Part shown: piece by piece, positions 28,237-29,109 of the stretch
Layout: every line of letters begins with the position of its first letter
Position numbering within the stretch: position 1 is the first letter of the stretch
Assembly: GCF_901472495.1 (NCBI RefSeq)
Contig: NZ_LR590469.1
Location: 3,372,993 to 3,404,992, forward strand
DNA: 32,000 bases
Reading direction: 5' to 3'
Origin: Yersinia enterocolitica subsp. enterocolitica
GTDB lineage: Bacteria; Pseudomonadota; Gammaproteobacteria; Enterobacterales; Enterobacteriaceae
Made by a program: the position numbers and the translations under genes
The notes under the pieces: generated by a model
The model's input: only the letters and a program-made list of their open reading frames with translations
The model's database searches: none
What the model was told of the DNA's origin: nothing

Positions 28237-29109
28237 TTAATTGTTATTGATAACCTGATTTAATTTCTTATAAAGCTCACCGCTTAAATCTTTAAATCCT
28301 TGATCGTTAGCTAAATATACTAATGCTCGATGATGACCAAGATCTGATGGTATGTCACTTATTGACTGAGTGATGGGAACAACAATTTTACCCAAAGTAT
28401 GAGCAATACCAGTTTCATACATTACGTTTGGATTTCTACCTGTGTAATCTACAATGATTACCTTTGAACAATATATTAAGTCAAATATATCTTGTATGAA
28501 TGTTGAGTTATCCCATATGTCATCTGCACGATAACACTCTATTTTCATATAGTCTGTTACTTTTTTTATCGCGGCATAAGTACCCGAGAACGATGAATTA
28601 AATGGCATCATCACGGACACTAATCGTGGATTTAACAGTTTGTTAGGAATTTTAAAAACAGAGGGCTTAAATGTAACTAATCTTTCAGTAGGAATTTCCT
28701 GATGATCAGTAGAAATAAACTCGCCATGTATTTGACATACACGTACTAAACCAGTAGGTAATTCAGCTATAGATAACCCATAACTATTTAAACATTTCTT
28801 TACTGATTCAACAGCTTGAGGTTTATCAATATTACCATTAGACAAAAAATGATCTGGATGGAGTAAATACTCTATTACTTTTATAATCTCTTTCGAGGGT
28901 AGTCCGTCAGAAATTGGTTTTTTCTGATTTAACTCTTTAAGAACATCATTTACCCAATGTCTACGAGTGGAGCCATTATGAACATATTCTAAGTCAATAT
29001 CGATAAAGAATTTTGTTAAGTATGAGGAGCTACGATATGGGAAAAAAGAAAAAGGATCATCACCACAAATCATTTCTGATAGCTTAGTTAATCCTGCTGT
29101 ACCAATCAT
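28237..29109 (-). CDS. Two-domain protein: unknown N-terminal domain (~160 aa) plus a nucleoside 2-deoxyribosyltransferase-like (NDT/TIR-like Rossmannoid) C-terminal domain
   Basis: The C-terminus VSVMMPF...ADDIW...CSKVIIVDYTGRNPNVMYETGIAHTLGKIVVPI fits the NDT-like pattern (beta1 ending in PF, an acidic residue, then NPNV-YE-G-A---GK--V-I). The start is set at MIGTAG (ATG at 29109), preceded by AGGAG at 5 nt. The ORF-track Met at 29124 has no SD. Confidence 0.6.
   Translation of the reverse strand: MIGTAGLTKLSEMICGDDPFSFFPYRSSSYLTKFFIDIDLEYVHNGSTRRHWVNDVLKELNQKKPISDGLPSKEIIKVIEYLLHPDHFLSNGNIDKPQAVESVKKCLNSYGLSIAELPTGLVRVCQIHGEFISTDHQEIPTERLVTFKPSVFKIPNKLLNPRLVSVMMPFNSSFSGTYAAIKKVTDYMKIECYRADDIWDNSTFIQDIFDLIYCSKVIIVDYTGRNPNVMYETGIAHTLGKIVVPITQSISDIPSDLGHHRALVYLANDQGFKDLSGELYKKLNQVINNN

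Follow-up and report, generated by a model that had tools for sequence, protein, structure and literature searches.

The stretch of DNA described here, referred to as the window, comprises 32,000 nucleotides (nt) from Yersinia enterocolitica subsp. enterocolitica (NCBI RefSeq assembly GCF_901472495.1, contig NZ_LR590469.1, positions 3,372,993 to 3,404,992 of the forward strand). The gene under study lies on its minus strand, in the cargo slot of a P4-like satellite, and encodes a protein of 290 amino acids (aa) whose C-terminal domain resembles nucleoside deoxyribosyltransferases (NDTs); it is called the NDT-like gene below. The gene, the parts of its product and its expression signals are listed by position in the window, with residue numbers of the protein.

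28237..29109, minus strand: NDT-like gene, complete coding sequence; 290 aa, stop codon TAA at 28239..28237.
28717..29109, minus strand: N-terminal domain (N-domain), residues 1-131; six helices, then a beta-hairpin, in the AlphaFold2 (AF2) model.
28687..28716, minus strand: flexible linker, residues 132-141; disordered, with a predicted local distance difference test (pLDDT) score <50 in the full-length model.
28240..28671, minus strand: C-terminal domain of the NDT/TIR superfamily (C-domain), residues 147-290, including a conserved F.P.VF.vP lead-in.
28414..28416, minus strand: codon GAA of Glu232, the predicted catalytic nucleophile, in a YETG motif; assigned by conservation and by alignment with Rcl/DNPH1.
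29115..29119, minus strand: Shine-Dalgarno sequence AGGAG, evident in the sequence itself; it precedes the ATG at 29109 by 5 nt.
29196..29225, minus strand: sigma-70-like promoter match upstream of the NDT-like gene; weak (pattern scan, 9/12 matches).

The list of open reading frames (ORFs) gives the gene as 28237..29124 on the minus strand, 295 aa, from an upstream ATG. We place the start at the ATG at 29109, because AGGAG stands 5 nt upstream of it, because all homologues align from the same first residue (MIGxxGLxK), and because two related loci, L002 from Rahnella and L081 from Serratia marcescens, carry an in-frame TAG at the position of the ATG at 29124 while retaining the Shine-Dalgarno sequence; the upstream ATG was rejected on this last ground. 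The preliminary description of this DNA had chosen the same start for the sake of its AGGAG, and was correct. The Shine-Dalgarno sequence is kept as AGGAG or GGGAG in L002, L081 and a third related locus, L082. The ratio of non-synonymous to synonymous substitution rates (dN/dS) is 0.06-0.17 in comparisons with three orthologous loci, at a dS of about 1; the gene is thus under strong purifying selection and is therefore a working gene. Sigma-70-like sites were not more numerous than expected by chance in the pattern scan, and the promoter at 29196..29225 is weak evidence.

The full-length AF2 model, built on 56 sequences, has a mean pLDDT of 90 and consists of two domains, the second of which has the three-layer alpha/beta Rossmannoid fold of the NDT type. 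In a Foldseek search of the PDB with the C-domain, the top 14 matches are NDTs (2a0k, 8pqt, 6qai), with E 1.3e-4 to 6e-4 and a probability of 1.0; TIR domains follow at E of about 1e-3 (SPARTA, MAL, TIR-STING), and then DNPH1/Rcl (8rpt, 4fyh). The NDT/TIR-like fold attributed to this half in the preliminary description is borne out by this ranking. The root-mean-square deviation of the C-domain from the TIR domains, 3.1-3.7 A, is lower than that from the NDTs.

Searched as a profile against solved structures, the C-domain matches Rcl/DNPH1 best (E 0.0037-0.01). Some of the DNPH1/Rcl structures matched are deposited as 5-hydroxymethyl-dUMP (hm-dUMP) N-hydrolase, and the CMP N-glycosidase MilB appears only at E=1.3. 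The DNPH1 match covers positions 54-100 of 139, that is the central 47 only, which form a superfamily-wide core motif; the first strand-loop is left unaligned. In this alignment ...vvivdltgrnpNVlYEvGiahtlGk... of DNPH1/Rcl is matched with ...VVVAEVTQPSLGVGYELGRAVALGK..., the stretch NVlYEvGiahtlGk with GVGYELGRAVALGK, and YELG with YE232TG, which puts Glu232 at the position of the YELG glutamate. That glutamate is the catalytic nucleophile of Rcl/DNPH1 and of NDTs; the NDT superfamily (Pfam clan Nribosyltransf) carries it in the helix that follows the fourth strand, within a YExG motif to which GK and a further strand succeed. The first strand of the C-domain reads LVSVMMPFNSSF; Rcl has a Gly/Ser-rich phosphate loop at the first-strand position. 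Glu232 is kept in at least 90% of 56 relatives and in at least 90% of 150, in agreement with the conserved glutamate of a YExG element that had been pointed out beforehand, and R194, D196, W199, D221, N226, N228, Y231 and H237 are likewise invariant or nearly so. A search of PDB sequences with the profile of the full-length protein gave a chance match to V-ATPase subunit C only.

Family models, among which Nuc_deoxyrib_tr and TIR-like families had been singled out beforehand, were compared as well. The relatives P0166 (30.7 bits), P0233 (34.5 bits) and P0253 (35.6 bits), which match the NDT-like protein at E 1e-33 to 1e-41, pass the cut-off of Pfam Nuc_deoxyrib_tr (PF05014), and 12 of 150 relatives match this model at E<=1e-3. 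The protein itself stays below the threshold (14.7 vs 28.8 bits, E 0.035), so that its Pfam link to NDTs is indirect and runs through these three relatives. At E<=1 it has no match to Pfam TIR, TIR_2 or DUF4062; one of the 56 relatives matches TIR_2 (E 0.0046), and the PADLOC 'TIR effector' model gives a partial match to the protein over residues 197-265 (2.2e-5).

The N-domain, modelled alone with AF2, reaches a pLDDT of 92.7 and a predicted template modelling score of 0.87. It carries the conserved motif MICGD..FPYRSSS.LT.FF; G16 and F34 are invariant, R26 and R49 nearly so. The statement in the preliminary description that this half is unassignable holds: the domain matches no model in Pfam (AbiJ_NTD3, AbiJ_NTD4 and AbiJ_NTD5 included), NCBIfam or PADLOC, and it has no significant fold match in the PDB (best E 0.37) or BFVD (best E 0.15). 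Sequence searches with the isolated N-domain, in which either one sequence or a profile of 27 sequences was the query, retrieved short fragments of the same family only; the matches were limited to proteins of at most about 280 aa and do not bear on other architectures or on AbiJ/HEPN fusions. The N-domain is probably the 'AbiJ-NTD1' of a 2013 survey of HEPN proteins; its size and mostly helical structure fit the description given there (PMC3710099), NTD1 having no public model. UniRef calls two of the relatives, P0011 and P0062, 'AbiJ N-terminal domain-containing protein'. Identity between N-domains of different phyla is 45-68%, a degree of conservation that may point to a trigger which is itself conserved and not to a phage protein that evolves rapidly.

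Homologues of the NDT-like protein number 2,562 at E<=1e-3, and full-length identities of 55-70% are found in Proteobacteria, Bacteroidota, Cyanobacteria, Chlorobi, Firmicutes and Planctomycetes. When 1.84 billion cluster representatives were searched exhaustively, 9,854 clusters (50% identity) were recovered at E<=1e-3, most of them through the C-domain alone. In every one of the best 150 representatives the C-domain forms the C-terminus, and it is preceded by varied N-termini, among them AbiJ_NTD5 (20 representatives), AbiJ_NTD3 (2), CDC48_N, integrase-like domains, REC, TPR, CHAT, PP2C, calcineurin-like phosphoesterase and PMT glycosyltransferase. Output or effector modules with interchangeable inputs show such an arrangement. 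Despite some 9,850 clusters, the copies of Pfam, NCBIfam, PADLOC and the PDB that were searched contain neither a model nor a structure of the C-domain family. All-against-all clustering of 1,747 flanking ORFs from 80 species-level loci yielded no conserved neighbour. Where defence or mobile-element genes do occur nearby, they encode TIR_2 proteins (4 of 150), type I restriction-modification systems (2-3 loci), integrases and transposases.

Some members of the family stand out by their local arrangement. Two homologues are split by insertion sequences (IS), one by an element with a Mutator-family-like transposase (L047, 4334..6594) and one by an element with a DDE transposase (L049, 4236..6372); such interrupted copies fit a costly gene and do not prove it. 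Adjacent genes that both end in the NDT-like C-domain, 41-57% identical to the query, occur at L063 (6001..7482), L095 (1724..3083) and L096 (1118..2599) and may be heteromeric pairs or recent duplications. In two Chlorobium loci the homologue is immediately preceded, on its own strand, by a gene of the uracil-DNA-glycosylase family PF03167 (L083, 7253..7873; L084, 2124..2738), an arrangement noticed in no other locus. An origin as a phage-encoded gene was rejected, the full protein being present in no phage genome and only one of seven IMG/VR matches being full-length. The only match in a phage genome is a distant copy of the C-domain (OQ240256.1, 36911..37237; 31% identity over residues 181-289), located within a gene of Latilactobacillus phage TMW 1.1365 P2 whose annotation is primase.

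We lean, with moderate confidence, towards the view that the NDT-like gene encodes a self-contained conflict protein of the abortive-infection type, in which a sensor and an N-glycosidase effector are joined in a single polypeptide. We infer this from the occurrence of the gene on its own, from the catalytic-type glutamate in a domain of the NDT/TIR class, and from the swappable input domains. An N-glycosidase effector with a sensor or partner-binding N-terminal domain had been suggested in general terms from the sequence, and it is now the leading hypothesis. The N-domain would be the sensor or regulatory part and the C-domain the effector, with Glu232 as catalytic residue. An infection cue would lift inhibition, or make the C-domains pair or oligomerise; the C-domain would then hydrolyse the N-glycosidic bond of an essential nucleotide, and depletion of that nucleotide would halt phage replication. 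Our best guess at the substrate is NAD(P)+, held with not quite even confidence and favoured because of precedents in immunity; a deoxynucleoside monophosphate (dNMP) comes next as a lesser though serious candidate, because of the DNPH1/Rcl profile matches and the company of a dCTP deaminase in the window. The related 'DrHyd' effectors have been predicted to be NADases by the Aravind group (PMC9503650).

Several points weigh against a single-protein sensor-effector. Conservation across phyla is unusually high, which is untypical of a sensor engaged in an arms race with phage proteins. Defence genes lie beside a minority of the sampled loci, the census of neighbours is mixed, and no enrichment is claimed. 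AbiJ-NTD1 is a provisional label for the N-domain, the protein scores below the threshold of PF05014 as given above, and no experimental work on the NDT-like family was found in the literature.

The genes on either side of the NDT-like gene, and the hairpins that delimit them, are as follows.

26701..28203, minus strand: anti-phage dCTP deaminase, made up of kinase-like and deaminase domains; separated by 33 nt from the stop codon of the NDT-like gene.
26538..26711, minus strand: 57-aa ORF, third member of the cassette, sharing 11 nt with the end of the deaminase gene.
26323..26346, minus strand: hairpin resembling a terminator, downstream of the 57-aa ORF; transcription of the unit probably ends here.
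29480..29497, minus strand: strong intrinsic-terminator-like hairpin closing the Ogr/Delta gene; 6 G-C pairs, then a T-run.
29517..29765, minus strand: Ogr/Delta zinc-finger gene of the P4-like satellite (Pfam PF04606, 2.5e-20), in the same order in Serratia L081.

The deaminase is assigned by NCBIfam NF041025 (485.6 bits, cut-off 400) and by the PADLOC model dCTPase (8e-179). The 57-aa ORF, which matches no family in Pfam, NCBIfam or PADLOC, is kept with the deaminase in L082, L002 and L081 at 61-91% identity and a dN/dS of 0.18-0.44, and may serve the deaminase as a small accessory protein or regulator. The hairpin at 29480..29497 marks off the cassette from the upstream Ogr/Delta gene, and the GC content of the cassette is 27-36%, compared with about 50% in the satellite core.

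The trio of NDT-like gene, deaminase and 57-aa ORF is confined to four loci of Yersiniaceae type, namely the window, L082, Rahnella L002 and Serratia marcescens L081. Within this lineage the NDT-like gene and the deaminase form one co-transcribed and co-inherited unit, because the 33-nt gap between them (24-33 nt in the lineage) contains no terminator, the GC content is uniformly low, and the two have diverged in parallel, with identities to the window (NDT-like/deaminase) of 97/98% in L082, 87/88.5% in L002 and 81/87% in L081 and with similar dS. The description of the NDT-like gene as the first gene of a cassette thus agrees with the layout, from the promoter-like site through the 33-nt gap to the terminator after the 57-aa ORF, while the pairing itself is limited to a narrow lineage.

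Among the 80 species-level loci of the NDT-like family, 79 have no deaminase within 6 kb; it adjoins the NDT-like gene in one, to which L081 and L082 of the same lineage are to be added. Conversely, no NDT-like gene is present beside the deaminase relatives L085-L088 (four IMG/VR loci, 53-58% identity) or L089-L094 (six loci), and the anti-phage dCTP deaminase defends as a single protein (bioRxiv 10.1101/2021.04.26.441389). Since most loci lack the deaminase, no neighbour is conserved, relatives of the deaminase are unpaired and the deaminase is self-sufficient, the two genes are best read as stacked defences in one satellite lineage and not as an obligate system. The proposal that the NDT-like gene complements the dCTP deaminase against phages with modified dC is left unsupported by the same four observations.

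In its strict form that proposal makes the NDT-like protein the dedicated partner of the deaminase, a dNMP or hm-dCMP/hm-dUMP N-glycosidase (hm, 5-hydroxymethyl) within one system of two or three genes directed against modified-cytosine phages. The short terminator-free gap, the shared low GC content and the joint divergence in four loci speak for such a partnership, and the best solved relatives are DNPH1/Rcl, some of them hm-dUMP N-hydrolases by name, with MilB at E=1.3; the DNPH1 match, however, is to the superfamily core motif only, and the unpaired occurrence of both genes elsewhere, together with the self-sufficiency of the deaminase, makes a dedicated partnership unlikely. A functional link to the deaminase is accordingly unsupported as a general property and a low-probability possibility for this lineage. 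As a long shot, the family may be a widespread immune effector, with a sensor of unsolved fold, that strips the base from dNMPs, possibly including dUMP or hm-dUMP made by a deaminase; in these Yersiniaceae satellites it would then take part in a two-step 'deaminate, then deglycosylate' pathway by which the (modified) cytosine nucleotide pool is irreversibly destroyed.

The setting of the cassette is that of satellite cargo. In the window, L002, L081 and L082 alike, the NDT-like gene occupies the cargo slot of a P4-like satellite, beside Ogr/Delta and downstream of the primase, and the primase in the window is 76% identical to the Toprim/DUF927 primase of Serratia L081. The cassette (26371..29281) is 96.4% identical to L082, whereas the adjoining host genes (21506..24941) are only 84.4% identical; the gene at the psu position is about 29% identical to its counterparts in L081 and L002, against 81-87% for the cassette. 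Because the cassette is far more conserved than the host flank and the psu-position gene, the cargo seems, judging by these identities, to move between satellites and hosts.

A protein without any immune role, that is, an enzyme akin to NDT, LOG or DNPH1 which serves nucleotide or nucleoside salvage, or signalling, and travels on mobile DNA by chance, would agree with the very high cross-phylum conservation and with the mostly non-defence neighbours of the sampled loci, and NDT and DNPH1 are themselves metabolic enzymes. We nevertheless regard it as distinctly unlikely: the gene has a patchy distribution that tracks horizontal transfer, it occupies satellite cargo space beside a validated defence gene, the C-domain is fused to AbiJ NTDs, CHAT, TPR and other domains, IS elements disrupt some copies, and no metabolic operon is conserved.

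An exchange of roles, in which the C-domain would be a non-catalytic nucleotide sensor, like some SLOG, TIR and DrHyd domains, and the N-domain the effector, is improbable. Inactive members of the TIR-DrHyd-SLOG clade have been described as nucleotide sensors (PMC9503650), and the N-domain does have conserved polar or cysteine residues (C15, R26, R49). It has, however, no recognisable catalytic motif or fold match, while the C-domain conserves the glutamate at the catalytic position together with the polar residues R194, D196, D221, N226, N228 and H237, and in P0233 it stands behind a REC receiver, the usual place of an output domain. Control or neutralisation of the deaminase by the protein, or by its transcript, in this lineage, after the manner of the AvcI RNA upstream of AvcD, is very improbable, for although AvcD-type deaminases are restrained by an element encoded just upstream (PMC10511110) and the NDT-like gene is the sole thing upstream of the deaminase in the window, the family overwhelmingly occurs without any deaminase, Rfam finds no structured RNA in the region, and the deaminase of Tal et al. 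required no partner.

Other parts of the satellite and of the window were noted in passing. Between the Ogr/Delta terminator and the cassette promoter lies a non-coding stretch of about 100 nt (29244..29349), which has unannotated counterparts of 83-90% identity in 66 E. coli chromosomes and may be a conserved cis element of P4-like satellites such as cos; in a near-identity DNA search of E. coli genomes this stretch alone was matched, and none of the cassette genes. At the satellite edge, a segment of 1.43 kb (24941..26371) contains a gene with a metallo-beta-lactamase fold (25139..25969, minus strand) that has weak matches to RNase Z and to the anti-Pycsar protein Apyc1; in the 97%-identical L082 the segment, which is extra variable cargo, is replaced by 460 nt of other sequence. 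Elsewhere in the window, five head-to-tail paralogues of 228 aa each, all with PAS_4 and a LuxR-type GerE helix-turn-helix, are encoded at 2515..6063 on the plus strand, and a full-length match to Rfam Ysr141 (Yersinia small RNA 141) is found at 11930..12184 on the plus strand (202.5 bits, gathering score 196), which points to a Yersinia-like host genome.

If the single-protein sensor-effector reading is right and the C-domain serves as a defence effector, a large family escapes the tools now used to find defence genes, and the chemistry of the NDT/TIR type would have a third immune use, after the TIRs and the effector of Retron-Eco1. In the satellite cassette two defences that target nucleotides are naturally combined, so that it is suited to learning whether they are additive or synergistic. 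It is also a case in which the local gene order points to a system and the wider distribution gives no support for it.

The AbiJ fusions are among the closest known systems. Anantharaman, Makarova, Burroughs, Koonin and Aravind described AbiJ-NTD1 in 2013 as a mostly helical domain of about 140 aa and recorded, in a one-line computational note, its fusion to a 'flavodoxin fold nucleoside deoxyribosyltransferase'; they proposed that the NTDs sense phage components, as sensor or antitoxin, and that the C-terminal domain is the toxin (PMC3710099). The architecture seen here, a mostly helical N-domain of about 140 aa followed by a flavodoxin-fold NDT domain, is therefore already predicted in that survey, and Pfam AbiJ_NTD5 or AbiJ_NTD3 is present in sister proteins that share this C-domain. 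The 2013 proposal for the AbiJ-NTD1 and NDT fusion was action on DNA, whereas free nucleotides are favoured here; and in AbiJ itself the C-terminal domain is a HEPN RNase, whereas the C-domain is NDT-like and the protein has no HEPN or Abi_C match.

DNPH1/Rcl, the best profile match among solved structures and also recovered in the fold search, differs in being a single-domain metabolic enzyme with no sensor domain. TIR and TIR-like NADases (SPARTA TIR-APAZ, TIR-STING, Swarozyc/DUF4062) have in common with the NDT-like protein the superfold and a glutamate at the equivalent position, and with its proposed design the logic of a sensor joined to a nucleotide-destroying effector; sequence profiles, unlike the fold they share, favour NDT for this family. 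Swarozyc, a TIR-like DUF4062 protein, depletes NAD+ (bioRxiv 10.64898/2026.05.01.722283) and has its catalytic domain at the N-terminus; membership of Swarozyc/DUF4062 (PF13271) was rejected, with no match at E<=1 for the protein and none among its relatives. The anti-phage dCTP deaminase (Tal et al.; AvcD) is adjacent, in the same transcription unit, and is linked by the common theme of an attack on the nucleotide pool; it is an unrelated protein, acts on its own, and is associated with the NDT-like gene in the four Yersiniaceae-type satellite loci only.

Retron-Eco1 (Ec86) provides a functional precedent in the form of an NDT-like N-glycosidase effector that is inactive until a phage cue and is reported to hydrolyse NAD(P)+ (PMC12673091; bioRxiv 10.1101/2023.08.16.553469). 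Its effector needs a reverse transcriptase (RT) and multicopy single-stranded DNA, and its NDT-like lobe is N-terminal, in both of which it differs from the protein described here; a retron type II-A effector was rejected as identity of the NDT-like gene, there being no adjacent RT ORF, no Rfam retron RNA and no match to a PADLOC retron model. What the two have in common is a domain of the NDT superfamily, used as an immune effector in Retron-Eco1 and predicted to be so used in the satellite of Y. enterocolitica.

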